From positions 635,217 through 699,216 of the forward strand of contig JBGUQC010000004.1 in NCBI GenBank assembly GCA_045130665.1: 64,000 nucleotides of DNA, written 5' to 3'. How positions within the stretch are numbered: position 1 is the first letter of the stretch; the number at the start of each line of letters is the position of its first letter. The stretch comes from Christensenellales bacterium (GTDB lineage Bacteria > Bacillota > Clostridia > Christensenellales > CAG-917). The notes under the pieces are model-generated. The model was not told the DNA's origin, did not search any database, and saw only the letters and a program-made list of their open reading frames with translations. Positions 3,067 through 56,310 of the stretch are shown one piece after another. Made by a program: the position numbers and the translations under genes.

Positions 3067-3076
3067 TTATATACCT

Positions 3077-5036: not shown

Positions 5037-5047
5037 TTTGCACCTCT

Positions 5048-6376: not shown

Positions 6377-6446
6377 TTACCTATTATTAAAAATCTATCT
6401 TCGAAAAATATTATATCACAAAATACCACTTTTTGAGAAGATATTA

Positions 6447-6476
6447 TAAAAAAAGAGAGCAACAAATGTGCTCTCT
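6447..6476 (-). terminator. Rho-independent terminator after argF
   Basis: 8-bp stem AGAGAGCA (6454-6461) pairs with TGCTCTCT (6469-6476). On the minus strand it is followed by a T7 run (the A-run at 6447-6453). Confidence 0.6.
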
Positions 6477-6497
6477 TAGTATTTAATATAAATATAA

Positions 6498-8569: not shown

Positions 8570-8570
8570 A

Positions 8571-9425: not shown

Positions 9426-9441
9426 ATCTATTTCTCCTTAA

Positions 9442-36606: not shown

Positions 36607-38280
36607 TTATTTTCTATTTAATACAACAACTGTCTCAAAGCTCGAATCTTTTTCCCACAACACTTTGTTCACCTCTTCATTGTTTACATAGACGGGGAAA
36701 TTGAACTCGATGGACTTCAATGGTATCTTTGCTTCCTCGTCATTTGGATAGATTTGAACCTCTTTTATGAGATATGACACCAAATCCCGTCGTTCTTCCT
36801 CTGTCATTATATCATAGAATGCTCCGAAAGTCTTTAACATTTCATAGATATTTTCCACCGTCACCCGTTCTTTTTCGATAGACTCCTTACGCAAATTGGC
36901 ATCGTCAAGACAAGATTCGATTTCACTGATTGTATCATACAATGAATCAAGCCGTTTCGTCATATCTGCGATCTTTCTTTCGCGATGAGTTGCGTCCATC
37001 GGCATCGTGTCGATTTCGTGTTCCAACCGAGTTTTGTTAGCAATCACCTCTTTCAGCTTTTTCTCGTAATTGGCAATCTCAGTATCAATCTGCGTAGTGT
37101 CAATCTCCTGCGATATTCTGCGTTGCACTTCTTTTGCAAAAGTCTCGTTTGCAACAAGCAATTTGATTGCCTCGATAACCAGCGGCTCGATATCTGTCTT
37201 GCGGAGTTTGGCTTTATAATCGCACATCTTGCCGCGCTTCCCTCCGCTATGTCCGCAATAGTAATAGTAAACGTCTTTGTATGTCCCATCCCGATTCGTC
37301 CACTCGTGTCGATTACAATACATAATGCCGCCACATTTCGGACAGCGCAGTATTCCCGTTAAAAGATGGGAGCGTTCGCGCCCTTGCTTACACTCCCACT
37401 TTACTCCGGTAGCTATTCGTTTTTCACGAGCCTTGTTCCACATCTCTTCGCTGACGATCCCTTCGTGTTTGCCGTCACTCAAGATATAATCGTCGGTTTC
37501 AACTCTTCTGTATTCGGCTTTCGTGCCTTTCACTTTTTCTTTTGTCCGTCGTCCGAAGGCAATTTTTCCGCAATAAACCGGATTGTCCAAAATGATCTTA
37601 ATGAAATGCCCCGACCAGTCTTCTATCGAGTGCCTTTGATGCGGTCTCTTTTTAAAACCTTGCAAGTTCAGATATTTGGCTATTCCGCCGTAACCCGCTT
37701 TTGTATTTACAAAGCGGTCGTAAATCAAACGGACGATTTCCGCCTCTTTTTCGTCTATTACAAGTTCGTTATTGACAAGTTGGTAACCGAACGGCGGCGG
37801 ACCGCCGTTCCATTTACCTTGTCTTGCTTTTTCTTTACGTCCGTTCATCGTCTGTTCGAGAATATTCTCTCTTTCGATTTCAGCCACAGCCGAAAGAATC
37901 GAAATTAGCAATTTACCGCTCGTTTGAGATGAATCGATTCCTTCTTCTACGCATATCAGTTCTACGCCATACGACTGTATCAATTCCAAAGAGTTCAGAA
38001 TATCAGCGGCGTTTCTGCCAAATCGAGACAGTTTATAAACGATGACGTAATCAACGCCCAATCCGTTTTTAATATCGTTCAGCATCCTTTTGAATTCCGG
38101 ACGCCCTTCGATAGATTTACCGGATTTTCCTGCGTCTTCATATGCACCGACGTGTACCATTTCTTCCCGTTCGGCGTATCTCGTAATGCAATTGGCTTGT
38201 CCTTCCAAACTGTATCCATCTACCTGCATTTCGGTACTTACACGAAGATACATTACATACTTCTTGCCTTCTCTTCTCAT
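36607..38280 (-). CDS. Large serine recombinase (TnpX/TndX-like)
   Basis: N-terminal resolvase catalytic domain YLRVSTEMQ..GYSLEGQ...YKLSRFGRN. This is followed by a recombinase domain, the zinc-ribbon cysteines CPKCGG...C..C, and a C-terminal coiled coil. Confidence 0.9.
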   Translation of the reverse strand: MRREGKKYVMYLRVSTEMQVDGYSLEGQANCITRYAEREEMVHVGAYEDAGKSGKSIEGRPEFKRMLNDIKNGLGVDYVIVYKLSRFGRNAADILNSLELIQSYGVELICVEEGIDSSQTSGKLLISILSAVAEIERENILEQTMNGRKEKARQGKWNGGPPPFGYQLVNNELVIDEKEAEIVRLIYDRFVNTKAGYGGIAKYLNLQGFKKRPHQRHSIEDWSGHFIKIILDNPVYCGKIAFGRRTKEKVKGTKAEYRRVETDDYILSDGKHEGIVSEEMWNKAREKRIATGVKWECKQGRERSHLLTGILRCPKCGGIMYCNRHEWTNRDGTYKDVYYYYCGHSGGKRGKMCDYKAKLRKTDIEPLVIEAIKLLVANETFAKEVQRRISQEIDTTQIDTEIANYEKKLKEVIANKTRLEHEIDTMPMDATHRERKIADMTKRLDSLYDTISEIESCLDDANLRKESIEKERVTVENIYEMLKTFGAFYDIMTEEERRDLVSYLIKEVQIYPNDEEAKIPLKSIEFNFPVYVNNEEVNKVLWEKDSSFETVVVLNRK

Positions 38281-41849: not shown

Positions 41850-42434
41850 TTATTTGCCGAAAAGTACCTTTAATAAACGCAGTTGTGCTAATTCTTCTTC
41901 AGTTTGTTTTAAGGCGCGCTCGCGCTCTCTCTTACGCTTTCGCGCTTCCTTTCTCTTCTGCCGTTTCTTCCCTTTCTTGGCTTCGATGGCTTGCAAACGG
42001 AGTTTTTCGAGGTTCTCTTCCGCTTTCAGAATGAGTTTGCGGACGGCGCCTTCCGTCACGCCCATCTCTTTGGCAATATCGACTTTCTTCATTTCAAGAT
42101 ACTTGAACTTGAAGTAAGCTTGCGCCTGCCGCGCCGTGAGCCGCGACTCCAACCATTTCTGTTTCCGCTCCAGTCGCTCGTCTTCCATCTGAGCCAATTC
42201 TTCTTCGAGTTCTTCTTCTTCGCGTTTCTCCCACACGGTCTCAATATCCGAATTAGGATCGGCGAACTCAAAACCCGCTTCTTCGAGCATATCCAAAGAA
42301 ACGTGCCGCCGCGTTTCTTTCCGGTTCACTTTCTGCTCGTATTTCTCAAGCTCGTAGAACACTTCCGCGACTTCGTCCGTTACTTCCAATTCTTCTTTAT
42401 GCCCATCGGCAAAGGTGTATAAAATCGTTTTCAT
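41850..42434 (-). CDS. Sigma-70 region-4-like HTH protein
   Basis: LTARQAQAYFKFKYLEMKKVDIAKEMGVTEGAVRKLILKAEENL is a region-4/LuxR-type HTH. It is followed by a Lys/Arg/Glu-rich tail. Confidence 0.55.
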   Translation of the reverse strand: MKTILYTFADGHKEELEVTDEVAEVFYELEKYEQKVNRKETRRHVSLDMLEEAGFEFADPNSDIETVWEKREEEELEEELAQMEDERLERKQKWLESRLTARQAQAYFKFKYLEMKKVDIAKEMGVTEGAVRKLILKAEENLEKLRLQAIEAKKGKKRQKRKEARKRKRERERALKQTEEELAQLRLLKVLFGK

Positions 42435-42450
42435 TTTATCGATTATTCAG

Positions 42451-44781
42451 CTATTTTATCATTATAATTGCGCCAGTATATGTATCTATTTTGTATTTAA
42501 TTTCTATATTTAAGATGACATACTCTTTATGTAATGCTCTTGCAACATCTTCCCTTGACATAAAAATGCTTTTATAGACATATTGACCATCAGGACGTTT
42601 ATACTTTTCAACTTCTTGTTCTAGATTTTCTCCGTCCAAATCATCGGCCTCAAACTTTACGATGTTACAATTAAAAGAGAATCCATCTTTTAAAATGAAT
42701 ACCGGCTTAAAGAAAATGTGGCTCTTAATCTTTTCTGCTTTTTCCATTTTCTTTTGATAAGATTGTTTTATCTCCTCATCTTTAATAGCATACCAATGAC
42801 GAATAGCTCCGCCATTAACGTACTGAATGTTCTTTGTCAGTAGATCTTTTGCATGTTCATCAAAAAGGTTTTCTCTTTCTATAATTTCTACATAATCATT
42901 TTCAATTTTAGTCCCTATTTCATGCAGAATTCCCCGAACGAATGAATCAATGATAACTTCGTCAAAATTGATCGCATCTGATGCTCTTTCGCACAAAACG
43001 GAAAGATATCTTGATTGTTCGTTTTTAATGTCTATAGCTTTATTAAAGCCCCATTCTTCCTCAACTTTACTTTCTATAGCAGGACCATATTTGTTTTCTA
43101 TATCCCTATTGCTGACTTTAGATGCTTGTTTAATCGTTTCCTCCAACTCATCCTTTTTCAACTCATCTAAATACGATTTAAAAGTATGTTCTCTTTCTTC
43201 CAAATTAATAAAAGCATCAAATACCGTTTGGTCTAATGAATAAAAGCCTACCATTTTTATCATTTTTTCAGAAGGGTGAAAACTCATGCCATCAAAGCAC
43301 TGTTTTTCAAACTCTTTTAGGTGAAAACTTATTTTCTCAAACAAACTCTTGTAATCATAATCATATATCTTCTCACTCAAAAACAGAGTTGTCAAGAACC
43401 AATCTGAAGCAAAATTCTCATCCAAAACAACGCTGTGCATAAATCCACTATAAAGCATAAATTCTAAAATAGAACTGTTTTCATTGAAAATTGTCATAAA
43501 GTCATTATAATTAGCGGCACAATTTTGCACATAGAACTTGAACATATTATTCCAAGAAACTATCGCTGTATTATCGGTAACCCCTGAATAAGCCATGAAG
43601 TCCTTAATATGCTCTTTTACAGTCTCAGTGGTATCTATCTCGCATTCTGCCAAATAGTATAAATACATACTTATAAGAGCAAACATTGTGGTTGATAACG
43701 AATCACTCCCTAGCATAAAATAGTTGACTGAATAATGCTTCCTAATTGTTTCCAGCAGATAAAAATCATTATATTTGATAGTAGTAGACAGGATTGATAG
43801 AATAACAGCTTCCGTAAAACAATCTTTTGTGCTTAAAGTCTCCTCATGTTTATTATAAAAAGACAATAAACCAGCAATAAATTCGGCTGTTTTTTCTCGA
43901 GATTGCGTATTCATCAACAATCTATAGATTGTCCTAGAAACATAATGTTTGCAGTTTGTTATTTCATCACCAATTATTGTGTAGATGTCAAAGTTCCACC
44001 ACAGAATATCCGAAACCGAATCGGTTAAAGCACGAGCAACCGTCTTAAATTCCTTATGATCGTTTATTGTATCAAGATCGAATGATGTTTTTTGTAGGTA
44101 ATCTAAAAGAGAATACAATACCTTTTTGTTATATTCGGGATAATCATCCTCTTTTAGCGCATCATATACAACACTAATATTCTTATCTTTTAACTGAAAA
44201 GAAACAGCTTTGTCAAAATCTATAGACAAAGGATCTGTTGCCTTTAAGGGAACGATGAATCTATTTTTGATGATTTTTTGCATGGCTTTTTCACTTGCCA
44301 TCATATATGGAATTTCCATATACAAAATATAAATACAAAAAATAAAAATCGCCAATGTAATACCCATGCACAATACCATTTGAGAGCATAAGTAAAAAAT
44401 GACATCCAAGAATAATGTGCTAAACGATATTATAGCACAAGCCCTCAGTGAGAAATGCTTGTCTACACGCATAGAGTATAGTTTACTTACTGTAATTCCG
44501 AATTGCTCATTATGTTGCAAAGAAACAGAAATACCCAAGATCGATACTATACAACAGACTATAGCCGCTATAACTTGACAAGAAATGCCTATTGCATTAA
44601 CAATAGATTCGCAACCATTCAACCAACGAAAGTGTTGCTCTATTATATCTAACACTATTGAAACAACGAGCAATATAACTGTAATTGAAATAATGAAATA
44701 GAATGAACCATTCTTTATTGCAGGAAACAACAGTTCGCTGCCTTTATTGTTTGAGTTTTTCTTTTCTTCCGTATCTCCCAT
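42451..44781 (-). CDS. 776-aa protein: four N-terminal TM helices plus a ~600-aa cytoplasmic domain with no recognisable motif
   Basis: Long uninterrupted ORF that starts 4 nt after the helicase-MTase stop. I found no Walker, PLD, HD, TIR or SIR2 motif. Composition is AT-rich, unlike its neighbours. Confidence 0.6.
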   Translation of the reverse strand: MGDTEEKKNSNNKGSELLFPAIKNGSFYFIISITVILLVVSIVLDIIEQHFRWLNGCESIVNAIGISCQVIAAIVCCIVSILGISVSLQHNEQFGITVSKLYSMRVDKHFSLRACAIISFSTLFLDVIFYLCSQMVLCMGITLAIFIFCIYILYMEIPYMMASEKAMQKIIKNRFIVPLKATDPLSIDFDKAVSFQLKDKNISVVYDALKEDDYPEYNKKVLYSLLDYLQKTSFDLDTINDHKEFKTVARALTDSVSDILWWNFDIYTIIGDEITNCKHYVSRTIYRLLMNTQSREKTAEFIAGLLSFYNKHEETLSTKDCFTEAVILSILSTTIKYNDFYLLETIRKHYSVNYFMLGSDSLSTTMFALISMYLYYLAECEIDTTETVKEHIKDFMAYSGVTDNTAIVSWNNMFKFYVQNCAANYNDFMTIFNENSSILEFMLYSGFMHSVVLDENFASDWFLTTLFLSEKIYDYDYKSLFEKISFHLKEFEKQCFDGMSFHPSEKMIKMVGFYSLDQTVFDAFINLEEREHTFKSYLDELKKDELEETIKQASKVSNRDIENKYGPAIESKVEEEWGFNKAIDIKNEQSRYLSVLCERASDAINFDEVIIDSFVRGILHEIGTKIENDYVEIIERENLFDEHAKDLLTKNIQYVNGGAIRHWYAIKDEEIKQSYQKKMEKAEKIKSHIFFKPVFILKDGFSFNCNIVKFEADDLDGENLEQEVEKYKRPDGQYVYKSIFMSREDVARALHKEYVILNIEIKYKIDTYTGAIIMIK

Positions 44782-44785
44782 ATAT

Positions 44786-47700
44786 TTACTCCATAGGTTT
44801 GATCATCGCCTCGATGAAAGCGATTTCGGATTCATCGAGGTTGTATATAGCGTATAATTGCTTGTCGATCTCGGGAACAGACTTCGACCAATCAATATCG
44901 GACTTGGCGGTAAAGTCTTGCATGGGAACAAACTTCCAGACTTTTTTTGTATTGTCTTGGGTGACTTTTAATATGCCCAACAATGTCCTTGCAAATTTCG
45001 ACTTAATATATTTCAAAACAGCTTCGGCTTCTGATTTCGAAGATGTTTCTCCCGCAGAAATATAGGTTTCGGTATAGCCGATCAACGGCGAGCCGATCAA
45101 CGGCGTAGATAACACTTCTCCAATTGCGCCCGATCCATTTGCTTTAGGAAACATAACTTTATACTTGTATAGATTATCTATTGGCGCCAAGTAGTCTTTC
45201 CTAAACCACCTATACACTCTATTGCTCCCAATATTCCCAAGCAATTGAATGTAGTCTTTACCATCATTAGGCTTATCCACTGTAAACAAAGCCGGCATAC
45301 GCTCAAATGCACTGGTTGAGATTCTTCTATCGGATGTTTTCTTCATCTCTTCAGGATGTTCTTCGTAAACTAAATCAGAAAACCTATATTGACCTCTGTT
45401 CAAAATAGTATCCGCGAAACTCTCGGTTGTTATAGCCCAAACTTTATTCTTGATGCTGTTTAACTCTTCATAGGAACAATACATTCCTATTGCGCCAAAG
45501 TTTGTCTTTGAATCTCTGTATGTAATTGCCACGCCACCCTTGATATCTACGTTGGGAAATACCTCGGAACTATCAGAAGTATAATACAAAACTTTGAAGT
45601 GTTCGTCCGAAAGAACTTTTTCATTCCAACTTGAAGGCGTTGCACCGGCATTGAATAAGAAACGAGCAGGCGTTATAAAACTAACTTTTTCTGACAACCT
45701 AAACGCAACATCCATGAACAGGTGATATATCGGTTTATCATTAACCGAACTTGCAACCGCTTCTTGATACGGCGGGTTTCCTACTACTGCGTCGAATTTC
45801 ATTTCTGCTACTCCTTTATTCCAATAACTGCCTCTCGTGACTTTTGCGCGGAATTGTTCCGGTTTCTCTTTTAGTTGGTTGATTAAGTCCTCAAAATAGT
45901 GGGCGTTTGCCTTTGTGCCGGAATATCCACAAAGGGTACGAATGGTGATATATTTTGCCATTTCCGTCTTGCAAATAACGAAGACGTTTTCTTTTACGGT
46001 CAAGTTCCATAGTTCGCGTTGTTTTTCGAGCGTCAATTCCTCTTGGCACTCCTCGCAACGCTTACGGTATATGCTGTAGGTGACGTACAACGGATACAAG
46101 CCTGTTTTGGAATTGATCTCCAATATCCGCGCGGAGGTATTGGCGAGCGTATCCGACGTCACTTTGCCGCGATCGACAAAACGAGGTTCTTCTATCGTTT
46201 CCTCGTGGTTTTCGTCGTAGAAATCATACCCGCCCAAACAATCGCTAATGTGCATATTGACGACGCGCCACGGCGTAAGCACCGTTTCTTTGTCGGGATT
46301 CTTGAAAGTAGCAAACAAAGCGGATATCTTTTGCACTCTTTCGGTGGGAGAGAGTAAGTCGGCGGCTTTTGCCAATTGACGGATACGACGACCGGCGGCA
46401 ATGAAGATATCGGCGTCATAATATTTTGCAAACTTTTTGAAAAGTTCTTTGGTGACGCCTTGCCCCTTGTTCTCCTTATCCTTCGACTCGTTCTTGGGCA
46501 TAAACTCTTTCCAAGATGCGTCGTCGATCAGATCGGTGAAGTTGTCGATGGTAATATCCTTATCAATAGGAATGTTCGCGCCGTAAATCAAAAGCGGTAT
46601 GCGTACGGATATGCCGCGCAAAATGGAAATGGCTTTTTGTTTATTATCTTGTTTCTTCTTTTTCTCCTCAAGGAAAGCGATCTCTTCGGGTGTGCGCTCT
46701 TTTTTCGGTTTACGCTCGATTCGTTCCAACTCCTCGTATTCTTCATCGGTAAACCCTTGATTGTTGACGTCAACGGTTTCCACTTTTTTGGATTGTTTAC
46801 TTGCGCCGATGATCTTTTTCAAGTCTTCAAAGTCTTTGAGTTCCAGTCCATCCAACTTCATCAGGTTGTCGTTGTAAATATGGATATCGTCGAAGCCGTT
46901 GCGGACAACCCTATCGGTATAGACGCGCTTGAGTTGTTGCAACAATCCGTCCACGTTATAGGGGAGCATATTGGAGCCTTCCACTGCAATAACGGGGCAG
47001 AAGTTGAGGAACTCGCCCATGATCACTTTATCACTGGATGTATCGCCGGCTCGTGTGGAAAGCCGTCCGGCTTCGGCAACGACTTTCAATGTCCTATCCG
47101 GCGCAAAGTCAAAGACATAGCATTCTTCTTTGATCTTACCGTTGATATTGGCGGGCGACTGCACACGGAAAATGGTCTGCATATAACTGGATGCAGACGT
47201 TGAAAACGTACCCGCAAGCATAAAGACCGCCGTCCATTCGGGAACGGTCACACCTGTAGTCAATCGACCACAAGAAAGAGTGATCGAATACGTTTCGGCG
47301 GGATTATCTCCGAAGGCGTCCTGCACCTTCTTCAACGCTTCGGCAGACTTTTCTTCCTCGTCGCCGCTTCCCGCGACGTTTGCGATATTAAAGTGTTTGA
47401 AAACAGGGTGCTGTTTGAGAAGCGCCGACAAAGCGCGGGCTTCTTTTACGCCCGGAACCATCCACAAAGAGTGACGGAAATAATTGCGATACTCTTCGGT
47501 AGAGTACGGGTAGTTGCTGTTTTCATCCGTCTTGCAAAGGAGATTGAGAAAACTCTCCACGTCGGCTTTGTGTACAAAGTCGCCGACTTTTGCATTCGAC
47601 GGAATCGCTTTGAAGTCCTTCTCGGGTTTTCCCGTCCAAGTGCGGAAGAACTCGTGGAAGTTGAAAGCGGAGTCCTCGGCGTCAATATATCCGGGGATCA

Positions 47701-48823
47701 ATTTATCAAGATTATAGGTGAAGATTTGCAGTTTGGGCAACGTCGCATAAGGATTACTGTCGCCAAAGTGATATTTGTCCCACTCGGCTTTCGCTTTCTG
47801 CTCCATCACATAATCCCACGTATAAATCTCTTGCTCGCTGAACTTGCTGACGATATTGAAGGGCGTACCCGACAATTCAAGAAGTTTCGGCTTCTTGGGG
47901 TGGTCGTTCAAAAGTTCTATAACCGTTTGACCGAGTTTCGTTTGCGTCCCTTCGTGCGCCTCGTCAATGATGACGAAATCCCATTCAATCAAAAACTCCA
48001 GTATGTTTTTATCGAATTTGCCGCCGACCGCTTCACTACCACGCAAATCTTGTATGGAAGCGAAATAAACGAACTTATTGTCGTCCTTTTCTATGAGTTT
48101 TTCAATTGTTTCGCCCTGCGTTTTCGAGCCGAATTGATAATCGGTATCGTAAAAGATCTTTTCAAAATCCTCGAACCAACCTTTACTGACAACGGGGCGG
48201 TGGGTAATAATGATCGTCTTTTGGAAGCCGCATTCCTTGGCGACTTGCAAGGCGGTCAAAGTTTTGCCGAAACGCATTTTTGCGTTCCAAAGCATATGGT
48301 CGTTGGTCTTAAATCTTGCGACCGTTTCTTTAATTGCTTTCTTTTGTTCGGGACGGAACAAAATAGGCGTTCTTCCTGTGGACACTTCCGTTGCCGTTAA
48401 AGATTTTCGACCTTCTTTAACTGCTTTGATCGCATTCTTTGCCGTTTCCAAATCAACGGGGAACCATTCGACGCCTTTCTTTTCATCCTTAAACTCATGG
48501 CGCGTAATGCCTGAGCGGATCAACACGGAATGAACCGCTTTATCAGAGAAAGAACGTAGTTTCTTTTTGCCATTGACCATTTCTTCGCGCACGGCAAGTT
48601 CCGTATACAGCAAATCGTAGGAGATCGCCGCCGTTTGCGTGTATTGGTCAATACGTTTCTTGGCGGCAACGTTTAATTCTCTGCAATTCGGGAAAAGCAA
48701 GTTGGGCGTTTTGTCCGAGCGTAAAGTGGCTTCGCCGATTTTCAGCAAGCCTTTATGTTCTTTGTCGTTTATGCCGAAGACATAAATCAACGTATATGTA
48801 AAGGTTGACGTAAACTGACTCAT
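44786..48823 (-). CDS. Single-polypeptide T5orf172(GIY-YIG-like) / SF2 helicase / gamma-class N6-adenine MTase / C-terminal specificity-like region
   Basis: N-terminus reads LIYVFGIND..GLLKIGEATL...VEWF. Helicase motifs are Walker A RFGKTLTA (GKT 48260-48268), DEAH IIDEAHEG (47954-47965) and LSGTPF. MTase motifs are ETVLTPWRVVNMH, ILEINSKTGLYPLY and VVGNPPYQ (NPPY 45767-45778). The tail is LYAIYNLDESEIAFIE. Confidence 0.8.
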   Translation of the reverse strand: MSQFTSTFTYTLIYVFGINDKEHKGLLKIGEATLRSDKTPNLLFPNCRELNVAAKKRIDQYTQTAAISYDLLYTELAVREEMVNGKKKLRSFSDKAVHSVLIRSGITRHEFKDEKKGVEWFPVDLETAKNAIKAVKEGRKSLTATEVSTGRTPILFRPEQKKAIKETVARFKTNDHMLWNAKMRFGKTLTALQVAKECGFQKTIIITHRPVVSKGWFEDFEKIFYDTDYQFGSKTQGETIEKLIEKDDNKFVYFASIQDLRGSEAVGGKFDKNILEFLIEWDFVIIDEAHEGTQTKLGQTVIELLNDHPKKPKLLELSGTPFNIVSKFSEQEIYTWDYVMEQKAKAEWDKYHFGDSNPYATLPKLQIFTYNLDKLIPGYIDAEDSAFNFHEFFRTWTGKPEKDFKAIPSNAKVGDFVHKADVESFLNLLCKTDENSNYPYSTEEYRNYFRHSLWMVPGVKEARALSALLKQHPVFKHFNIANVAGSGDEEEKSAEALKKVQDAFGDNPAETYSITLSCGRLTTGVTVPEWTAVFMLAGTFSTSASSYMQTIFRVQSPANINGKIKEECYVFDFAPDRTLKVVAEAGRLSTRAGDTSSDKVIMGEFLNFCPVIAVEGSNMLPYNVDGLLQQLKRVYTDRVVRNGFDDIHIYNDNLMKLDGLELKDFEDLKKIIGASKQSKKVETVDVNNQGFTDEEYEELERIERKPKKERTPEEIAFLEEKKKKQDNKQKAISILRGISVRIPLLIYGANIPIDKDITIDNFTDLIDDASWKEFMPKNESKDKENKGQGVTKELFKKFAKYYDADIFIAAGRRIRQLAKAADLLSPTERVQKISALFATFKNPDKETVLTPWRVVNMHISDCLGGYDFYDENHEETIEEPRFVDRGKVTSDTLANTSARILEINSKTGLYPLYVTYSIYRKRCEECQEELTLEKQRELWNLTVKENVFVICKTEMAKYITIRTLCGYSGTKANAHYFEDLINQLKEKPEQFRAKVTRGSYWNKGVAEMKFDAVVGNPPYQEAVASSVNDKPIYHLFMDVAFRLSEKVSFITPARFLFNAGATPSSWNEKVLSDEHFKVLYYTSDSSEVFPNVDIKGGVAITYRDSKTNFGAIGMYCSYEELNSIKNKVWAITTESFADTILNRGQYRFSDLVYEEHPEEMKKTSDRRISTSAFERMPALFTVDKPNDGKDYIQLLGNIGSNRVYRWFRKDYLAPIDNLYKYKVMFPKANGSGAIGEVLSTPLIGSPLIGYTETYISAGETSSKSEAEAVLKYIKSKFARTLLGILKVTQDNTKKVWKFVPMQDFTAKSDIDWSKSVPEIDKQLYAIYNLDESEIAFIEAMIKPME

Positions 48824-49797
48824 CTGTGCCTCCCGTCAAGCAAAGTGACGAACTTTACTTTCTTTCCCTTTTCCCAATCCATAACGTAACAATAAATGCC
48901 GTTATGACGGTTTCTGTTGTTTTTCAAACAGCCTTCGCATTCTTCGATTTTCGGCTCGTCGAATAAAGATAACTGCATTGATTCCATCTTGTGGCAACTG
49001 TTGGGAATGACGAATTTCAGTCCGTCCATCTGCCATATATTCCACGCAAGTATCTCGGCGATCTCGCGCAGGTATTCTCTTATCGGATACACACCGAACT
49101 TGTCTTCGTAGTAGTCGCAGAATGTAAAGAGTAGGTTTTCACGAGCGAGAAGGACGTTATCCCCCTGCCAGTCATAGCCGTAAATGCTCTTATATGCTTC
49201 TTTCGCCCACGCGTACCACTCTTGCTCGCCGTCGGTATTTTCGGAAACAATACGGAGTTTTCTGTCCAATAGCCCGATGCGGTTTTTAACGGGTATCACT
49301 TCGCCCGTAACGGTATCGTAGCGACTGGCAAGATAGGGCGCTTCGCCGCAGGTAATCTCAAGGCGTTGCGCCTTAACGTAGTCTTGCCACGTTTTGCCGT
49401 CGGGGAAGGTCAATTTTTCTTCATTTGTCATCCAACCTTTTTCCGTTTCGGTATTAAAGACGTTTTCATGCCCAAACCAAGCATTGTCGATGAGATTGTT
49501 TTGTTTATTGCATATCCACGATGGCGTGAATACTTCGGCTTTGTCACGGACACGAGAGAGTTGCTCTTGTTTGGTCTTCTCGGTGCGCGGCTTGATGAGA
49601 TTGCCGTTCGCTCCGGTGATGGCATAGACGTCGATATGGTCGTTTTTGCCGTAGCCGAAACCTTTTTGAGAATAGTTATCCGTAGCCCAAATGAGATTCT
49701 TACCCGAAGAATTGTCTTTGAGCAGAAAAGACAAAAGAGATGCGTCCATCTCCAGTATCTTATTCTCTTTTACATCAACTCTAATCTCTTTTGCCAT
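48820..49797 (-). CDS. MTase-fold-like protein lacking a catalytic (D/N)PP(Y/F) motif
   Basis: KAEVFTPSWICNKQNNLID is motif-X-like and RLEITCGEAPYL is motif-I-like (compare M.TaqI LEPACAHGPFL). YGYDWQGDNVLLARENLL is also present, with no NPPY anywhere. The stop overlaps the next start as ATGA. Confidence 0.5.
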   Translation of the reverse strand: MAKEIRVDVKENKILEMDASLLSFLLKDNSSGKNLIWATDNYSQKGFGYGKNDHIDVYAITGANGNLIKPRTEKTKQEQLSRVRDKAEVFTPSWICNKQNNLIDNAWFGHENVFNTETEKGWMTNEEKLTFPDGKTWQDYVKAQRLEITCGEAPYLASRYDTVTGEVIPVKNRIGLLDRKLRIVSENTDGEQEWYAWAKEAYKSIYGYDWQGDNVLLARENLLFTFCDYYEDKFGVYPIREYLREIAEILAWNIWQMDGLKFVIPNSCHKMESMQLSLFDEPKIEECEGCLKNNRNRHNGIYCYVMDWEKGKKVKFVTLLDGRHR

Positions 49798-49877
49798 TCG
49801 TTTTTTATCCTTATTTCTCCTGTCCTATTTTACCACTTTTCGTCGTAAAAATCAATGCCGCCGTAGCCCTACTATGA

Positions 49878-49906
49878 ATAATATCGTATCCATTTTACTT
49901 TGTAAA
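49878..49906 (-). promoter_or_regulatory. Promoter of the RM-like operon
   Basis: On the minus strand: TTTACA (49906-49901), a 17-nt spacer, then TATTAT (49883-49878). It lies about 80 nt upstream of the ATG at 49797. Confidence 0.5.
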
Positions 49907-49993
49907 CCGCCATCTGTCCCAATATGGGTACTCCTTGACTTATTCGTTTCGGAGCATATCAGCTTTCCTATTCCATACAAAGCACTCCCAACT

Positions 49994-50698
49994 CTAAATG
50001 CGTATTGTTAAGCTGTCTAACAAAACCCACTGTGTTTGATTTGAGTAATCAATTGTGCCTTCGTTTGCACAGTCGTTTATATCCATTGCGAATTTCATTC
50101 TGAACGGTTCAGACAAACAGTTTTTTAAGTTTATGATATTCGTCCACAAAGAACCGTTACCGTCGCCGAAACTACATTTCTTCAAATTCTTGTTGTCCAA
50201 CAAAAAACGATTATGGCTTACTTCGTTTCGCAATGCGATAACAGCGTCAAGGTCGCGAGATAGTTTATCAATTTTATTAAGATAAAGAGGGAATAACTCT
50301 TGCTTATCTGTTTCAGGCAACTTTTTCGCTTGCGATATCAATTGCCCGAACGTTAGGGAAGATAACGCGCTGAAAAAGCCATCGCCTGAATCCAAGTAAC
50401 GTTGTAACTGTAAAGTATGTATTATTGCTCCACTATTATCGCTATATTTGTTTGAAATAAACGCGCGAATGCTTTCTTCCAAAAGACCAATATATTTATA
50501 AAGAACACGACGTATCCGTTTATCGTAGCGGAAAGCGGTGGCAATTTCGGCATAAGAAACTTTTTCACCGGAAAGGCTTTCCAGGTGTTGGCGAACGTGA
50601 TCGTGTTCGTCAATGCCACGGTATTGAAGATAATGAACCGACTTCTTTTTCTCTTCTTCGGTTATTATTATTTTTTCCCAAAACTCTTCGTACGTCAT
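49994..50698 (-). CDS. Abi_2 (AbiD/AbiF-like) HEPN-domain protein
   Basis: FRYDKRIRRVLYKYIGLLEESIRAFI plus IALRNEVSHNRFLL. The latter contains the R-x4-H HEPN motif, R157..H162, at 50213-50230. Confidence 0.7.
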   Translation of the reverse strand: MTYEEFWEKIIITEEEKKKSVHYLQYRGIDEHDHVRQHLESLSGEKVSYAEIATAFRYDKRIRRVLYKYIGLLEESIRAFISNKYSDNSGAIIHTLQLQRYLDSGDGFFSALSSLTFGQLISQAKKLPETDKQELFPLYLNKIDKLSRDLDAVIALRNEVSHNRFLLDNKNLKKCSFGDGNGSLWTNIINLKNCLSEPFRMKFAMDINDCANEGTIDYSNQTQWVLLDSLTIRI

Positions 50699-50705
50699 AA
50701 TAAGG

Positions 50706-51326
50706 CTAATCGCAAATCTCGTTGATTGCTTGGATCAATATCGAAAACGAAGCAATATCATCTTGCTTGGACAAGTGCTGATTCTTCAACTTAAGATATC
50801 TCGCGCGCAAATCATTCCACTTTCCGGCGTCCTTTATCGCTTTGATTTTTGTTTGGTAATTACGCGAATTACGAACTTCATTCCAGTAATACTGTCCGGT
50901 CGCTTTATTGTGTACGATCTTCAGATAGTTGCCGTTGTTTCCTTCGCACATAATGGCAACGTCGAAAGAAAAGTGTAAGCGGTTCCCGAAAATCAACTTC
51001 GACGTTATCACCGAAGTAGAGTTTTCCGCAGGTTTAAAGCCCAAATCGGGATTCGTTTCGTTAAACGCTTGAATGAACAGTTCCTTTATCTTTTTGGGAT
51101 TGTTTATCAGCCCTTGCTTGTCCTTTTGTAGAATAAAATTGTAGTCCAGATCAAACTCGCCATTCTCTCCGTTTTGGGTGATAAGGTTATTGCTTCCACT
51201 ACCGATCAGAACGAATTGAAAAGTAAAGTAATCTTTAAGCCAACTCTGTTGAACGTTCTTAATAATGGTTTCGCAAGCGTTTTTTAATTCTCTTAATTCC
51301 TGTTTATCGTATACGTAATCAAACAT
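50706..51326 (-). CDS. Minimal Pol-beta-superfamily nucleotidyltransferase with a helical C-terminal region
   Basis: VLIGSGS-x13-DLD, with DLD at 51144-51152, gives the GS...DxD signature. A third acidic strand reads HFSFDVAIM. AGGAGA RBS. Confidence 0.65.
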   Translation of the reverse strand: MFDYVYDKQELRELKNACETIIKNVQQSWLKDYFTFQFVLIGSGSNNLITQNGENGEFDLDYNFILQKDKQGLINNPKKIKELFIQAFNETNPDLGFKPAENSTSVITSKLIFGNRLHFSFDVAIMCEGNNGNYLKIVHNKATGQYYWNEVRNSRNYQTKIKAIKDAGKWNDLRARYLKLKNQHLSKQDDIASFSILIQAINEICD

Positions 51327-51349
51327 TATTATTCTCCTAAAACATTTTT

Positions 51350-53224
51350 CTACCTTTTATCTTCTTTATAGCAAATTTCAGATTGTTTTCTGTAGAAAGC
51401 AATCCCAAGTTTCAAAATGCTATAGCCCTGCGCTTCAAGCGGATAGGCATATTCTTTTTCGTCGATTTGATTGAGCGCTTCTTGCGACAACGCGCAGAGT
51501 TCGTTCGTAATCGTATCGGCATTTTTACTTGTCGTAGACAGCACCTTAACTTCGATGATGATGGCGGGCATATTTTTATTGAATGGAACCATTTGGATAT
51601 CGAAACGACCATTGCCGGATTCCCGATTAGACGAAACAGAATACAAATCATTCATCACTGCGTACAGTCCCAACATCAAGCCGTGATAAAAGCCTTCGTT
51701 CGACGTATCGAAGAAACTTACCGTTTGTTTGAGATAGCGTTCGAGATGTTGTTTCATTCCGTTTATATCGTTATCGATAATCGCTTGTTGAACAGACGAC
51801 GCCGTAGATTGAGCGCGTGAGTCGCCGATCGCCGAAAGAATCTCTTTTCCATAGATCCGTTGGATCTCTTTGTTGGGAATGGAAACATAATAGAATGACG
51901 TTCCCGCGACGTTCGGACTCTTGTTTAGTTTCAAATAGCCGGCGATGAGCAGAAAACTGAATATCGTTTGAGGATTGTCCTTGATCTCGGGATAGATCAC
52001 CGAAGTGTCCACGTCGGCAAGAACCGACTTCCCTTCCAACAAGGCTTGTAACTTTTCTTTCGTTTCTACGGGCGATTCCAAAACGATCTGACGAATGATA
52101 TCATTGCTACCCGTGTTTTGCCAATAGGCTTGCGGTATACATTCGTTTTTGATATAACTGATGACTGACCACGGATTAAACATCTCGTTGGAGCCGAAGC
52201 GATACCCGTCGTACCATTCGCACACTTCGCCGAACTTGCTTTTCTTGCCATAAGCGGCGAGAAGCGTTTTGACTTCTTCCTTCGTAAAACCGAAGTACGT
52301 GCTATAACGCTCTTTCAGTACCGAATTATCGATGAGATTATTCATGCCGCTGAAAATGCTTTCTTTTGCGACGCGCAAAATACCCGTCATAAAACCGAAT
52401 GAAAGATGTGAATTATCTTTGAATCCGCCCGAAAACAAATTGCGCATAAACACAATGATTTTCTCATAATACTTTTTCGTATATCCTTGTTGAATCGGAG
52501 TATCGTATTCGTCGATGATAATGACAGGTGCTATATCGTAATAGTCATGCAACATCTTCGACAACCTTGCAAGTGCTTCGGTCAATTCTACTTCCGTTTC
52601 ATTGCCGGACAATAGTTTGTTGTAATAAACGATCTCGTTTTTATCCGCTTTCGCATTCTCGCCGATAATTTCTTTATGGCGAATAAACTCTGTTTGAAAC
52701 AGCGACTTTATTTTAGCAAAGGTATCTTCCCATGTATCGAACTTAACGTCCTTAAAAGAAAGGTAGATCACGGGATATTTCCCTTGATAAGAGGTGTATT
52801 TCTCTCCGTATGCCCATATTCTTTTATCGGCAAAATAACGAGACGTATCCTCATCGCTCTTCTCAAAAAACACGCGAAGCATATCCATCGTCAATGTTTT
52901 TCCGAAGCGACGGGGGCGCGTAAACAAGCTGACCTTGGGGAGATCGTCCAATATGTCTTTGATTAGATCGGTCTTATCCACGTAATAATAATGACTAACA
53001 GCTTCTTTGAAATCTGACACGCCGATAGGAAGCGGCTTCCGTAAATTTATCAAAGCTCCTCTTTTCGTTCTCCCGTCTACCGGCTTTTCCGCATTCACAG
53101 GTATTAACCACATTCCATTCTCTTTTTTCGCTCCAATGATTTTACCATCACGACAAAGCATTGTGATTCTGCGTTCTTCTAATTCCCATTTTTCAGCAGC
53201 TTCTTGCACATTAATGAAATCCAT
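51350..53224 (-). CDS. HTH + AAA-ATPase_like + PD-(D/E)XK (PDDEXK_9-like) protein
   Basis: N-terminal excisionase/MerR-like HTH (INVQEAAEKWELEERRITMLCRDGKI). Then PIGVSDFKE....YYYVDKT...TRPRRFGKTLTMDML (Walker A). The C-terminal GNGRFDIQM....AIIIEVKV is a D...ExK nuclease motif. Confidence 0.75.
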   Translation of the reverse strand: MDFINVQEAAEKWELEERRITMLCRDGKIIGAKKENGMWLIPVNAEKPVDGRTKRGALINLRKPLPIGVSDFKEAVSHYYYVDKTDLIKDILDDLPKVSLFTRPRRFGKTLTMDMLRVFFEKSDEDTSRYFADKRIWAYGEKYTSYQGKYPVIYLSFKDVKFDTWEDTFAKIKSLFQTEFIRHKEIIGENAKADKNEIVYYNKLLSGNETEVELTEALARLSKMLHDYYDIAPVIIIDEYDTPIQQGYTKKYYEKIIVFMRNLFSGGFKDNSHLSFGFMTGILRVAKESIFSGMNNLIDNSVLKERYSTYFGFTKEEVKTLLAAYGKKSKFGEVCEWYDGYRFGSNEMFNPWSVISYIKNECIPQAYWQNTGSNDIIRQIVLESPVETKEKLQALLEGKSVLADVDTSVIYPEIKDNPQTIFSFLLIAGYLKLNKSPNVAGTSFYYVSIPNKEIQRIYGKEILSAIGDSRAQSTASSVQQAIIDNDINGMKQHLERYLKQTVSFFDTSNEGFYHGLMLGLYAVMNDLYSVSSNRESGNGRFDIQMVPFNKNMPAIIIEVKVLSTTSKNADTITNELCALSQEALNQIDEKEYAYPLEAQGYSILKLGIAFYRKQSEICYKEDKR

Positions 53225-53254
53225 TTGCTTGGCTCCTATATGTTAATCATCTAT

Positions 53255-53283
53255 ATTATATACATTCGCAGGTGGCATGTCAA
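53255..53283 (-). promoter_or_regulatory. Consensus SigA promoter of the AAA/NTase/HEPN operon
   Basis: On the minus strand: TTGACA (53283-53278), exactly 17 nt, then TATAAT (53260-53255). The ATG at 53224 is preceded by TAGGAG. Confidence 0.65.
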
Positions 53284-53333
53284 GATAGATGTCAAGTTAT
53301 TTTCGCCAAATGTTAAGTTATATGTCGAGATAT
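53277..53333. repeat. Four copies of a 12-bp motif ATGTYRAGWTAK arranged as two tandem dimers
   Basis: ATGTCAAGATAG (53277-88), ATGTCAAGTTAT (53289-300), a 9-bp gap, ATGTTAAGTTAT (53310-21) and ATGTCGAGATAT (53322-33). The first copy contains the -35 hexamer. Confidence 0.6.
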
Positions 53334-53417
53334 GCCGATAAAATATTTAAATATATATTAAAAAAACCAGAAACCCTATCAAAAGCCTATTGTAAAATCA
53401 TATAAAAAACATTTTTC

Positions 53418-54551
53418 CTATTCAGCTTTTATTACGGCTACATACTTTGATCCAAACATATGATCTGAATAAAAATCAGTCCACGTGTTAATAGATGCTA
53501 CCGCATTGACATGTCTGATTAATATTCCGTCCATCTCAAGTTCTTTTCGTTTGTTAATTATGTAAGAATGTAAATCATTAAAGTCTAATACAATTCCATT
53601 TCCTAACACGTTAATGCTTGTTCTTTTCAAAACTGTTTTTTCTTGCAAATACGCTTTCGGATTCTCTCTTTCTGAAAACCTCTTTGTGCATTCGATGGTA
53701 TCTACAAGCGACATAAGCATTAATAGTTTATTCTCTATTGTTACTCTTTTAGGCGAAGTCGAAAGCAAATTAAATAAAGAATATCTCCTATAAATAGCAT
53801 CTTTTTCTGCACTGTCAGATTTAAATATATTATGTGTTGCTGCAATAAAACAAGCTATCTTTTGTTCTTTCATAATAGCAGGACTAGGATAAATACCAGT
53901 CATGCCATTTTTCAATTTCGTTTTCAAGTCTCGCTCAACTTTTTTGCAATAATTGGAAAAAACGAGTGCACCTCCAATAATACCATGATCATTCTTTTCG
54001 TTCTTATCATTTTTTAATTGCTCTTTCCTATATTGGAAATAATTTAAAACCTCGTCATAAGTATATGAGAAAAAACACTTTGTTTCTTCGATTATGGACA
54101 TATTGTTTAAATATCTGAACTCTCCGCTTCCATAATCATCCATAAATAGATTATGCTCTTTAATAAGGTTTTCTATCTGTAAATCTTCATCTTTGACTTC
54201 CTTCCTAAAATAACCGTAATCATGCGTTATTGCTGTTTGTAGCCATATTCTTCCAAAATATAGCGATCCTACGCCAGCGGGATATTTGTTCAATTGAAAA
54301 GTATCAGCTAACGCAACACCCAACAACCAAGTTACCATAATATGTGTTGCCCGTTGTTTGTTAAAAATAATCGCATTCGGATCATCGTCCAAAATACATT
54401 TAATAAAATCCACACAAAGGTTACAATCGTTAATAACTTTTTCAAAGGAATTGAACTTTATTATCTTGTACTCTTCTTCATCAAGACCTATATGCAAGTT
54501 CAACAGATTATTGTATGTTTGTTCTATAAACTTATATAAAGACAATTTCAT
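53418..54551 (-). CDS. Hypothetical protein with an HD-domain-like His/Asp pattern
   Basis: 377 aa with ..RATHIMVTWLLG...LQTAITHDYGYF...NDHGIIGGALVF...AATHNIFKSD, which fits an H..HD..H..H..D layout. AT-rich gene at the island edge. The assignment is tentative. Confidence 0.4.
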   Translation of the reverse strand: MKLSLYKFIEQTYNNLLNLHIGLDEEEYKIIKFNSFEKVINDCNLCVDFIKCILDDDPNAIIFNKQRATHIMVTWLLGVALADTFQLNKYPAGVGSLYFGRIWLQTAITHDYGYFRKEVKDEDLQIENLIKEHNLFMDDYGSGEFRYLNNMSIIEETKCFFSYTYDEVLNYFQYRKEQLKNDKNEKNDHGIIGGALVFSNYCKKVERDLKTKLKNGMTGIYPSPAIMKEQKIACFIAATHNIFKSDSAEKDAIYRRYSLFNLLSTSPKRVTIENKLLMLMSLVDTIECTKRFSERENPKAYLQEKTVLKRTSINVLGNGIVLDFNDLHSYIINKRKELEMDGILIRHVNAVASINTWTDFYSDHMFGSKYVAVIKAE

Positions 54552-54657
54552 AGGTTCACTTCATGGATAGTATTTTTCTTGCTTTTTTAAAACAGCTACT
54601 CAAGCACTTGAGTATGCGATGCCAATCATATGATCATCACGTTTTGTTTTGGAATGT

Positions 54658-56310
54658 TTATATTATCTCAAAATGTTTCAACGCATCCTTGATCACTTCT
54701 ATCATCTTTTCCGATGGATGTTGACGAGGACGTTTGAGTTCTTCGACGGCGTTAGGGGCGTCGTACATAGGCAAGCCGTAACTACGTTTGACCTCGGCGA
54801 TATAAGCGGTGTGGACTTTGAAACCGTAGTTCTCTTCCACATAAGCTTGTATCATTTTGTAGGTAACCCGCTCCGCTGGTTTATAGACTTGTGCATTCTT
54901 TAATAGGGTATCCGTTTGAATACTGTTGTCCTTGTCGAAATCCACTTTAACTACGATATGACTGTCCGGAATTTTGTGGGAAAGTTGAACCAGCGTTTCA
55001 ACATGAGTCGTTTGTGGGAACATATCAAAAGGTTGAATATATGCTATCTCATACTTATCACTAAGCATTTTTATATCTCTACTTAATGTCGCAGGATTAC
55101 ATGAAATGTAAACTATCTTATCAAACTCAACTTCTTTTGCCTTTAAAACAACTTTTTCATCAATTCCTTTTCTTGGCGGATCAATAAGTAATGCTTTTAT
55201 GTTTCTATCATCAACGAGTTCATCCATAAATTTTCCAGCATCGTCACAAATACAACGAACTCTATTAGACACATTTGTACTTTCCATTAATTTCCTAGCA
55301 TCTTGAACAGCTTCTGGAACTATTTCAACAGCATCAAATTTGGACTTTGGCATACGTTTTGCTAAGTTTGCTGTTAAAATTCCAATTCCTGAATAAAGTT
55401 CTACTATATTTCCATCAAAGTTTGAAAGCTTTTCGGCAACCTTGTTGTAAAGAGCACTCATAACATCTAAATTTACCTGTAAAAATGAAAATGGGTCAAT
55501 TTTGACATTTATTCCATCTATTTGATGTAATGTTTCTTCACCATACACAAGTTGCTTAGTATCTCCTAAAATTACATTACCTGTCTTTTTGTTTGGCGAG
55601 AAATACAAACTAAAGGTTGAAAATGCCTCTTTAATTTTAGCAACTAAAGAGTCTACAAAAGGAATCTTGTCTCCAGCACCTACCAAAACAATATCTGGAG
55701 TATCTATAAACCTAACTACCAAATGTCTTAGGAAACCTTTTTTGGTTATCTCATCGTATACACTAACATTATTCTCATTAGCCCACTCTGAAAAAATCTT
55801 GATGATATCTGCTGCCCATTCTTTATGTAACGGACAAAATTTCATGGAAACTACTTTGTGGGTTTGTTTCTCATAAAAACCTAAAATTACTCTTTCTCCT
55901 CTCTTGCCAAAAGGTAATGCAAGTTTGTTTCTATATTCCCATTCATTTACAGAAACAGGGGTAGGAACATCTACCTCTATTCCAGCATTTTTCTTGAGTG
56001 TTCTTTGGATATTTAGTCTCTTAATATCTAACTGTTCTGAATAAGCAATGTGTTGCATATCACAGCCACCACATTTGCCATAATACGGACATTTTGGTTT
56101 TACTCTAAAATCGGAACTTTTAATAACTTCAACGATATCACCAAAGGCATAGTCTTTCTTTACATATGAAAGTTTGATTTTAACCTTCTCACCTTTGATT
56201 GCACCTTGTATAAAAATAGGGTAATTATCTATCTTTGCGATACCTTCTCCACCCATTCCAAAGTCTAAAATATCAACTATGAGTTCTTCGCCGATTTTAC
56301 AATATCCCAT
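54658..56310 (-). CDS. rlmD: 23S rRNA (uracil-C5)-methyltransferase RlmD/RumA, chimeric: native body plus ~100-aa island-encoded C-terminal tail
   Basis: TRAM-like N-terminus, Fe-S cysteines CPYYGKCGGCDMQH, ELYSGIG, the YISCNPATLSRD nucleophile motif and DMFPQTTHVET. The frame then continues across the att core into GC-richer island DNA. Confidence 0.85.
   Translation of the reverse strand: MGYCKIGEELIVDILDFGMGGEGIAKIDNYPIFIQGAIKGEKVKIKLSYVKKDYAFGDIVEVIKSSDFRVKPKCPYYGKCGGCDMQHIAYSEQLDIKRLNIQRTLKKNAGIEVDVPTPVSVNEWEYRNKLALPFGKRGERVILGFYEKQTHKVVSMKFCPLHKEWAADIIKIFSEWANENNVSVYDEITKKGFLRHLVVRFIDTPDIVLVGAGDKIPFVDSLVAKIKEAFSTFSLYFSPNKKTGNVILGDTKQLVYGEETLHQIDGINVKIDPFSFLQVNLDVMSALYNKVAEKLSNFDGNIVELYSGIGILTANLAKRMPKSKFDAVEIVPEAVQDARKLMESTNVSNRVRCICDDAGKFMDELVDDRNIKALLIDPPRKGIDEKVVLKAKEVEFDKIVYISCNPATLSRDIKMLSDKYEIAYIQPFDMFPQTTHVETLVQLSHKIPDSHIVVKVDFDKDNSIQTDTLLKNAQVYKPAERVTYKMIQAYVEENYGFKVHTAYIAEVKRSYGLPMYDAPNAVEELKRPRQHPSEKMIEVIKDALKHFEII
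54969..54991. repeat. attR-like junction (right island boundary, inside the rlmD reading frame)
   Basis: GAATTTTGTGGGAAAGTTGAACC is an imperfect direct repeat of 36565-36590. The core TTTTGTGG lies at 54972-54979. Confidence 0.55.

Follow-up and report, generated by a model that had tools for sequence, protein, structure and literature searches.

We analysed a 64,000-nucleotide (nt) stretch of contig JBGUQC010000004.1 from a Christensenellales bacterium, referred to below as the window, with the focus on three adjacent open reading frames (ORFs) of its minus strand: gene A (48820..49797), encoding a half-methyltransferase-like protein of 325 amino acids (aa), gene B (44786..48823), encoding a putative nuclease-helicase-methyltransferase fusion of 1345 aa, and gene C (42451..44781), encoding a protein of 776 aa with four predicted transmembrane helices. 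The stop codon of A and the start codon of B overlap as ATGA, and the TAA stop codon of B (44788-44786) is followed by ATAT and then by the ATG of C at 44781, which leaves a gap of 4 nt. All of these positions, given by an original prediction that was made from the letters of the window, were reproduced, and the tight packing of the three genes that it described is likewise supported; A, B, and C are probably co-transcribed.

The original prediction also placed a promoter ahead of the first gene. This promoter-like site, TTTACA-17-TATTAT (49878..49906, minus strand), is indeed present upstream of A, its two hexamers are invariant in three related islands (L092, L094, and L096) in which the spacer varies, and it falls within a block conserved with related islands whose edge lies at 49931-49966. 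The pattern alone, however, is not above chance, as 26 such promoter-like patterns occur in the region compared with 17.5 ± 4.5 in shuffles. A second promoter-like site, TTGATT-17-TAAAAT with the TG of an extended -10 element (49827..49855, minus strand), is located between the first site and gene A and is invariant in a four-island alignment. Terminator-like matches total 10 versus 8.3 ± 3.0 in shuffles, which corresponds to chance level; those on the minus strand (47198, 47247, and 49753) all lie within coding sequence, and none is found at any junction of A, B, and C or between C and the next gene, in line with the earlier statement that an internal terminator is lacking. Since no terminator follows C and the next gene begins 16 nt after its stop codon, the transcript may extend beyond C.

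The conserved A-B pair and the slot behind gene B

Synteny was examined in 80 genome loci picked via B (50-77% identical), which span Bacillota, Bacteroidota, Spirochaetota, and others. An A homologue stands directly upstream of B in 76 of these loci; in the other four, the sequence available ahead of B is shorter than 300 nt. The gene order supports A-B as a conserved functional two-gene module. No C homologue was found in any of the 80 B loci. A co-directional ORF within 200 nt past the end of B is present in 42 of them, and the 42 encoded proteins fall into 37 unrelated clusters, none of which includes C; the gap to the slot gene is 30 nt or less in about 29 of about 70 loci. By sequence, the families in this slot are mostly those of defence islands: they comprise Schlafen/AlbA_2, DUF3644, Mrr, GmrSD, DUF488, DUF4357, DUF2971, Abi_alpha, AbiH, and AbiJ, in addition to AAA_15/AbiEii-like, KAP NTPase, TIR, SIR2, Hypoth_Ymh, and several PADLOC candidate families.

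The boundaries of the slot were located with the help of five sister islands (L092-L096), whose B proteins are 92-97% identical to that of the window and carry the same target-recognition domain (TRD). At the position of C, L092 and L093 hold a gene for a 312-aa RES protein and L096 a gene for a 360-aa bSEFIR/TIR protein (PADLOC bSEFIR, E = 1e-50) together with a 379-aa gene, in each case after a 4-nt gap, while a 171-aa gene is found in L094 and L095. DNA homology with the sister islands, as determined by blastn, extends from 49931-49966, just upstream of the promoter, to the B stop codon (breakpoints 44767-44786). In L094 and L095, homology resumes at the start of a 194-aa backbone gene (window 42439 onward) and runs through the backbone, and L092 and L093 share a 130-nt match beginning at 42434. 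Because homology breaks at the B stop codon and resumes at the backbone gene, C is delimited as an exchangeable cargo cassette (42440..44785, minus strand; breakpoints 44767-44786 and 42434-42439). A Shine-Dalgarno (SD)-like GGAG (44789..44792, minus strand) is embedded in the last codons of B, ATG GAG TAA, 7 nt before the start codon of the slot gene, and the corresponding ...PME terminus of B is conserved in its closer relatives (13-sequence alignment A1). As far as these DNA comparisons reach, gene C was shown to occupy a hot-swappable slot bounded by the B stop codon and the island backbone, with the GGAG inside B serving the slot gene.

The original prediction had combined the trio into one functional unit. 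This claim is not supported, judged by a refuting condition that the prediction itself had named: the trio is not syntenic among the 80 B loci, sister islands with nearly the same B hold RES, bSEFIR/TIR, or the 171-aa gene in place of C, and most C homologues are located without A-B. A modified version was nevertheless considered, in which the trio would be one system with a modular third part, A-B acting as the sensor or first line and the slot gene as an effector restrained or triggered by A-B in a PrrC-like manner. The 4-nt gap with an SD within the conserved last codons of B, the equal spacing before different cargo, the roughly 29 loci with gaps of at most 30 nt, the effector-type nature of many slot genes (TIR, SIR2, RES, Mrr, Schlafen, and membrane proteins), and the recurrence of C homologues beside other helicase plus methyltransferase systems (L097, L100, and L101) would all be compatible with such a system. 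Against it, about 40% of the loci with adequate downstream sequence lack a co-directional gene in the first 200 nt after B, and the slot also accommodates two-gene cassettes (L096) as well as bSEFIR, GmrSD, and AbiH/AbiJ/Abi_alpha, which are autonomous defence systems. Moreover, B and the slot gene do not co-vary, the same TRD being accompanied by different cargo, and some C homologues are preceded by a spacer of their own (184-290 nt) and lack any restriction-modification (RM) neighbour (L001-L003, L102, and L103). Overall, we regard a modular three-part system as unlikely.

Domain architecture of proteins A and B

Protein B comprises, from the N- to the C-terminus, a T5orf172 domain, a superfamily 2 (SF2) helicase, a linker, a gamma-class methyltransferase (MTase), a TRD, and a conserved tail. 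The earlier description of B as a nuclease-helicase-MTase fusion of Type ISP-like logic is substantiated by the location of T5orf172, ResIII/DEAD, and Eco57I domains. The T5orf172 putative nuclease domain, which belongs to the GIY-YIG clan (residues ~10-135; 48419..48796, minus strand), was assigned from Pfam and homologues: a B homologue with 68% identity (P0047) has a precomputed PF10544 match, and the phage protein NatCom_974, 30% identical to B, matches T5orf172 (E = 2e-9) and MUG113 (E = 2e-6). Residues Y14, G30, R57, H98, and E119 of B are invariant in alignment A1. The SF2 helicase-like motor (residues ~156-620; 46964..48358, minus strand) contains GKT (186-188), DEAH (287-290), and SGTP (318-321), and residues 156-322 are matched by Pfam ResIII/DEAD (ResIII, E = 3.6e-17). 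A complete gamma-class MTase core (residues ~845-1100; 45524..46291, minus strand) follows, with ETVLTPWRVVN as motif X, LEINSKTGLY as motif I, and NPPY at 1016-1019; Pfam Eco57I covers residues 945-1089 with its whole model (positions 1-171, E = 1e-25), and the N-terminal half of this MTase aligns with the full MTase of phage NatCom in hhalign (E = 3.5e-5, motifs co-linear). Among 73 B family members, GKT, DEAH, SGTP, ETVLTPWRVVN, LEINSKxGLYPLY, and GNPPYQ are conserved.

In the conservation profile of the same 73 members, residues ~1101-1250 (45074..45523, minus strand) form a hypervariable region in which the mean frequency of the commonest residue is 0.10-0.43, versus 0.5-0.8 elsewhere, and conservation returns in the C-terminal tail. 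Since a variable stretch between conserved flanks is a signature of RM enzymes with a swappable TRD, this region is the putative TRD of B. The PADLOC model REase_MTase_IIG (PDLC03626) matches B with E = 2e-44 and its best stretch at 1004-1344, and MTase_II models match the C-terminal third as well. No Mrr_cat or PD-(D/E)XK (PD-ExK) match was found in B, and neither phmmer nor a 13-sequence B family profile retrieved any match at E<=1 from all PDB chain sequences.

Homologues of B number at least 8000, as all 8000 scored candidates in a protein search were significant, and relatives are present in at least 569 species genomes of several phyla and on Lactococcus, Enterococcus, and Lactobacillus plasmids. 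On the Lactococcus and Enterococcus plasmids (L086/L088), the half-MTase partner is shorter (230 aa), and the large protein of 1452 aa carries an extra N-terminal DUF4145 ahead of the B-homologous part. The copy on the Lactobacillus amylolyticus plasmid pL6-1 (L087, 4479-10288) is split into ORFs of 1297 and 190 aa, the latter annotated as 'restriction endonuclease', and its small half-MTase partner lies downstream, not upstream; this copy is probably decayed or rearranged. Within the sister islands, B of L094 (8001-12017) is 95-99% identical to B of the window except for the linker (621-840), where identity is 69.5%, suggesting a recombinational mosaic within the gene.

For protein A, no Pfam or NCBIfam match was obtained and sequence and profile searches of the PDB were empty; the REBASE-derived PADLOC model MTase_II (PDLC03390) matches it over the full length (E = 2e-125). 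A carries motif X as AEVFTPSW (aa 87-94), motif I as LEITCGEAPY (146-155), motif II as YGYD (206-209), and motif III as WNIWQMDG (252-259), conserved in the family as AEVFTPSW, LExxCGEAPY, YGyE, and WNxWQMDG, respectively. No (D/N)PPY, i.e., no catalytic motif IV, is found among the conserved motifs of A, and a TRD is likewise lacking. By hhalign, the A family aligns with the 226-230-aa 'N-6 DNA methylase' proteins encoded alongside B homologues on three plasmids of lactic acid bacteria, immediately upstream of the B homologue in two of these (probability 98.6%, E = 1e-15), with motifs X, I, II, and III aligned, and the 230-aa lactococcal partner in turn matches positions 20-105 of 311 in Pfam N6_Mtase. 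From this profile alignment and the N6_Mtase match of the partner, A is, at the level of its motifs, the N-terminal, cofactor (S-adenosylmethionine)-binding half of a gamma-class N6-adenine MTase. Its half-MTase-like character, as originally predicted, is thus backed concordantly by PADLOC MTase_II, by hhalign, and by a phage fusion.

In this fusion, found in Fusobacterium phage FNU4, residues 22-320 of A run in frame into residues 1008-1342 of B, and Pfam Eco57I positions 9-171 bridge the junction between the A-like and the B-like part. Tenacibaculum phage PTm1 encodes gp279, which is 51% identical to A, and the nearby gp277, which begins at MKFDIIVGNPPYQ and matches Eco57I positions 73-171 only. 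In phage NatCom_35866 (L091), a small partner, a full MTase, and a T5orf172-helicase protein are encoded by three separate genes. These phage genes showed that the A-like half may occur either joined to a B-like C-terminal half starting at motif IV or as a separate neighbour of it. As to the FNU4 locus itself (L089, vB_FnuS_FNU4, 2682-4553), FNU4_28 is annotated from an internal ATG, its A-like part including AEVFTP extends upstream in frame without an ATG, GTG, or TTG start, and it adjoins an integrase gene, so that the gene may have been truncated or rebuilt by integration.

We also considered whether A is simply the missing half of the B MTase. A has the traits of an N-terminal half (motifs X and I-III) and the FNU4 fusion exists, yet B appears to possess an N-terminal half of its own, as seen from Eco57I model positions 1-72 and the hhalign match to phage NatCom, and this explanation was rejected. 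The alignment of the A family with the MTase region of B by hhalign gave nothing, the TP of motif X being the only common element.

Another explanation is a pair that does not restrict DNA at all. A-B would then methylate DNA as an orphan system or to protect the element, or would have decayed to a relic; the helicase and T5orf172 would serve loading and not cleavage, and A-B might pre-methylate element or host DNA or regulate genes. DnmA-YeeB-YeeC, with the same domain set, had no restriction or anti-phage effect in Bacillus subtilis (PMC9973331). Phage genomes, in which MTases often provide self-protection, contain A-like and B-like parts, and the module is carried by a serine-recombinase island. 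However, the invariance of GKT, DEAH, SGTP, and the candidate GIY-YIG-type residues across phyla points to selection for the corresponding activities; furthermore, the hypervariable TRD is typical of arms-race systems, A-B is embedded among defence genes, and dnmA and yeeB homologues are reported to have altered phage sensitivity in Vibrio crassostreae (PMC9973331). A non-restricting role of A-B is thus considered rather improbable.

Protein C and its mobile island

In protein C, four transmembrane helices (25-160) precede an all-alpha solenoid (164-575), which is followed by an alpha/beta domain at the C-terminus (590-776). The four hydrophobic helices noted earlier agree between hydropathy and the AlphaFold2 model, which was computed from an 82-sequence alignment and reached a predicted local distance difference test (pLDDT) score of 92.7 and a predicted TM-score (pTM) of 0.83. 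No match to C was found in Pfam, NCBIfam, PADLOC, or PDB, and Foldseek with the model gave no match at E<=1e-3 in PDB or BFVD, consistent with the originally proposed lack of a known fold. The solenoid produced generic ARM/HEAT-like Foldseek matches, and the C-terminal domain (window 42454-43014) repeatedly showed a weak likeness to encapsulin and HK97-type capsid proteins with TM-scores of about 0.3 (8dnl, probability 1.0, TM-score 0.36; BFVD F6LQD0, E = 1.1e-3), all of them above the E cut-off. We take this capsid-like resemblance of the modelled domain as a lead, not as a result. C had appeared to be an orphan in a word-index search that gave three or four relatives; this was discarded, as an exhaustive profile search gave 304 cluster representatives instead, about 100 of which are full length at approximately 780 aa.

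A scan of metagenome loci with an 8-sequence close alignment of C yielded nine loci. Among all contexts collected for the family, the same island slot is occupied in L005 by a C homologue with an identity of 35% only, with both flanks conserved. Elsewhere, a C homologue follows a pair of an SNF2-like helicase and an Eco57I-type MTase after 14 nt (L097, 2512-8068), and in L100 and L101 (~3700-10400) a distance of 286 nt separates one from a preceding Type III-like Mod/Res pair, GmrSD being close by. Other homologues adjoin TfoX_N, GyrI-like, DUF1848, a transposase, or a sigma factor. Of the roughly 11 contexts examined in total, at least 5 have the C homologue next to an RM system, and the association of the family with other helicase-containing RM systems may be more than chance. 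Judging from these associations, C is probably a stand-alone defence gene.

Alternatively, C might be ordinary non-defence cargo that is incidental to A-B, e.g., an element membrane protein for transfer, exclusion, or envelope biology. The lack of a PADLOC defence-family match and of a fold match would agree with this, as would the homologues beside TfoX_N, GyrI-like, sigma factor, and transposase genes. On the other side stand the slot that C shares with bSEFIR, RES, TIR, and other defence genes, the RM systems next to its homologues, and its absence from sister islands with the same backbone, which implies that C is not required for mobility of the element. Non-defence cargo is consequently seen as very improbable.

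The A-B-C stretch sits on a small mobile island at approximately 36.5-54.7 kb of the window, with a G+C content of 0.38-0.47 compared with 0.30-0.36 in the flanks. A large serine recombinase with Resolvase, Recombinase, and Zn_ribbon_recom domains (36607..38280) marks one end of the island, accompanied by DUF6291 and sigma-70-r4-like genes, and on its other side the island borders on the 3' terminus of a methyltransferase gene (54658..56310), the sister-island homologue of which has TRAM and tRNA_U5-meth_tr domains. L094 and L095 share the backbone and the insertion site with the island of the window. A second variable cargo region (49966-54658) extends between this methyltransferase gene and the promoter of A; it contains an Abi_2/AbiD-like gene (49994..50698), a gene with AAA-ATPase_like and PDDEXK_9 domains (51350..53224), and genes for proteins of 206 and 377 aa without matches, and is occupied by DUF4365 and AAA_14/DUF4143 genes in the sister islands instead.

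Comparison with known systems and interpretation

Type ISP enzymes (LlaGI/LlaBIII) resemble B in the order of nuclease, SF2 helicase-like ATPase, gamma-class adenine MTase, and TRD within a single chain, and resemble A-B in being plasmid-borne or carried by mobile genetic elements with a variable TRD. In contrast, their nuclease is of the Mrr/PD-(D/E)XK type, whereas the N-terminus of B belongs to the T5orf172/GIY-YIG clan, and B has no detectable similarity, even by family profile, to PDB chains, which should include LlaGI and LlaBIII. Type ISP enzymes act as one polypeptide (PMC3553950, PMC4666363) without an extra subunit, while B has a half-MTase partner gene in 76 of the 80 loci. Type ISP enzymes are further characterised by ATP-driven translocation, by cleavage when two enzymes collide, and by methylation of one strand. 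By description (PMC2731913, PMC9973331), the DnmA(YeeA)-YeeB-YeeC cluster shares with B an MmeI/Eco57I-like MTase, an SF2 helicase, and T5orf172/GIY-YIG, whose activities are predicted to work jointly, but distributes them over three genes (MTase, helicase, and T5orf172 protein), which B combines in one ORF in the reverse domain order, and the separate half-MTase gene is found in A-B in addition. Morgan et al. (2009; PMC2731913) proposed that the MTase of this cluster confers specificity and one-strand methylation and that cleavage occurs via the helicase and GIY-YIG subunit, and also mentioned uncharacterised 'large single polypeptides' composed of endonuclease, helicase, MTase, and TRD. The genes of phage NatCom_35866 are intermediate between DnmA-YeeB-YeeC-like separate genes and the fused B.

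Type IIG/IIL enzymes (Eco57I, MmeI, and BpuSI) share with B the Eco57I-type gamma-class MTase core, which contains NPPY and precedes a TRD. The Eco57I system pairs its fusion enzyme with a separate MTase. Unlike B, with its ATP-dependent helicase (GKT, DEAH) and without a detected PD-ExK, these enzymes have a PD-ExK nuclease and no NTPase motor, and compared with the partner in Eco57I-kind systems, A is only half an MTase that lacks catalytic motif IV and a TRD. Regarding the slot, the Type I enzyme EcoprrI harbours and guards the anticodon nuclease PrrC. Both such defence genes within RM operons and defence-island hotspots are similar to the A-B slot, where a variable gene of defence type is closely linked to a conserved RM core and cassettes are exchanged at fixed boundaries. 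The content of the A-B slot is, however, far more diverse (37 clusters in 42 loci), the ribosome-binding site is placed within the conserved C-terminal codons of B, and a functional coupling of the slot gene to A-B is not evidenced here.

Other candidates were set aside. BREX (PglZ, BrxC, and BrxL) and DISARM (DrmA, DrmB (DUF1998), and DrmC) were rejected, with no PADLOC model for A, B, or C, and the neighbours are Abi_2/AbiD-like, AAA-ATPase_like/PDDEXK_9, sigma-70 r4-like, DUF6291, and recombinase proteins. Classical Type I/III systems were dismissed in view of the single chain that unites MTase and helicase and of the missing HsdS, HsdM, or N6_N4_Mtase matches, Hma in view of missing signature proteins and PADLOC support, and MANTIS/Gao_RL as a different, four-gene system. 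The literature searched yielded no named system that matches T5orf172-helicase-Eco57I plus a half-MTase, and no experimental or biochemical characterisation of the A-B pair. The original prediction could not match the composition to any named system; REBASE-derived PADLOC models do reach the pair, and since MTase_II covers the whole of A and REase_MTase_IIG the C-terminal third of B, the pair is catalogued as putative RM.

Taken together, we propose, with a probability of about 0.6, that A-B is a conserved two-protein, ATP-dependent RM-like module and that C is separate, exchangeable cargo in one probable transcript. Based on its domains, B would recognise a DNA site via the hypervariable region, methylate adenine with its own complete gamma-class MTase (NPPY), and cut unmodified DNA using the SF2 motor and the T5orf172 domain, following the logic of Type ISP with a different nuclease. 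A may dock on the MTase/TRD module of B as an obligatory accessory, either as a second-strand lobe or as an activating lobe. C, by association, would be an anti-phage or abortive-infection protein that is anchored in the membrane, works on its own, and rides along with the A-B operon.

Several points weigh against this proposal. That A-B restricts DNA, that it methylates a motif, and that A and B interact are all predictions; the direct match of the B N-terminus to Pfam T5orf172 (19.0 bits, E = 0.002) is below the cut-off of 20 bits, no citable demonstration of nuclease activity was found for T5orf172, and the B. subtilis cluster gave no restriction or anti-phage activity (PMC9973331). The conservation of a second N-terminal half in the form of A is unexplained when B seemingly has a complete MTase core, and the AlphaFold2 model of A (22 homologues, 71-100% identical) reached a pLDDT of 48 only. 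As for the separateness of C, the coupling between slot and B is very tight (4-nt gap, SD inside B, and gaps of at most 30 nt in ~29 of ~70 loci), several slot genes resemble bare effector domains (RES and TIR), and C homologues also adjoin two other helicase-containing RM systems; given the tight coupling and the bare effector domains, a functional link to A-B retains a small probability.

A further-reaching interpretation would make A-B an unrecognised, phylum-spanning class of ATP-dependent RM in which a half-MTase acting in trans gates or completes methylation, and in which the C-terminal codons of B form an expression socket for interchangeable abortive-infection effectors (TIR, SIR2, RES, Schlafen, and C) wired to the RM enzyme as a second defence line; C would then represent a new family of membrane effectors whose C-terminal domain is capsid-like. 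We think this extended interpretation improbable and return to the proposed A-B module with separate cargo, according to which the finding is a motor-driven single-chain RM with a half-MTase partner and, joined to it, a cassette slot for defence genes, occupied in the window by a protein from a family not described before.

Relatives of A-B are spread over at least 569 genomes at species level and over thousands of clusters from metagenomes, and such single-chain proteins were flagged as neglected as early as 2009 (Morgan et al.). For the annotation of such loci, tight operon packing on mobile islands is no proof of a single system. The conserved half-MTase partner is unusual and could reveal a new control of self-methylation in motor-driven RM enzymes. 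C itself is a candidate defence family with about 300 clusters and a confident model without a fold match, and the cassette slot at the B stop codon gives a practical starting point in the search for new defence genes through guilt by association.

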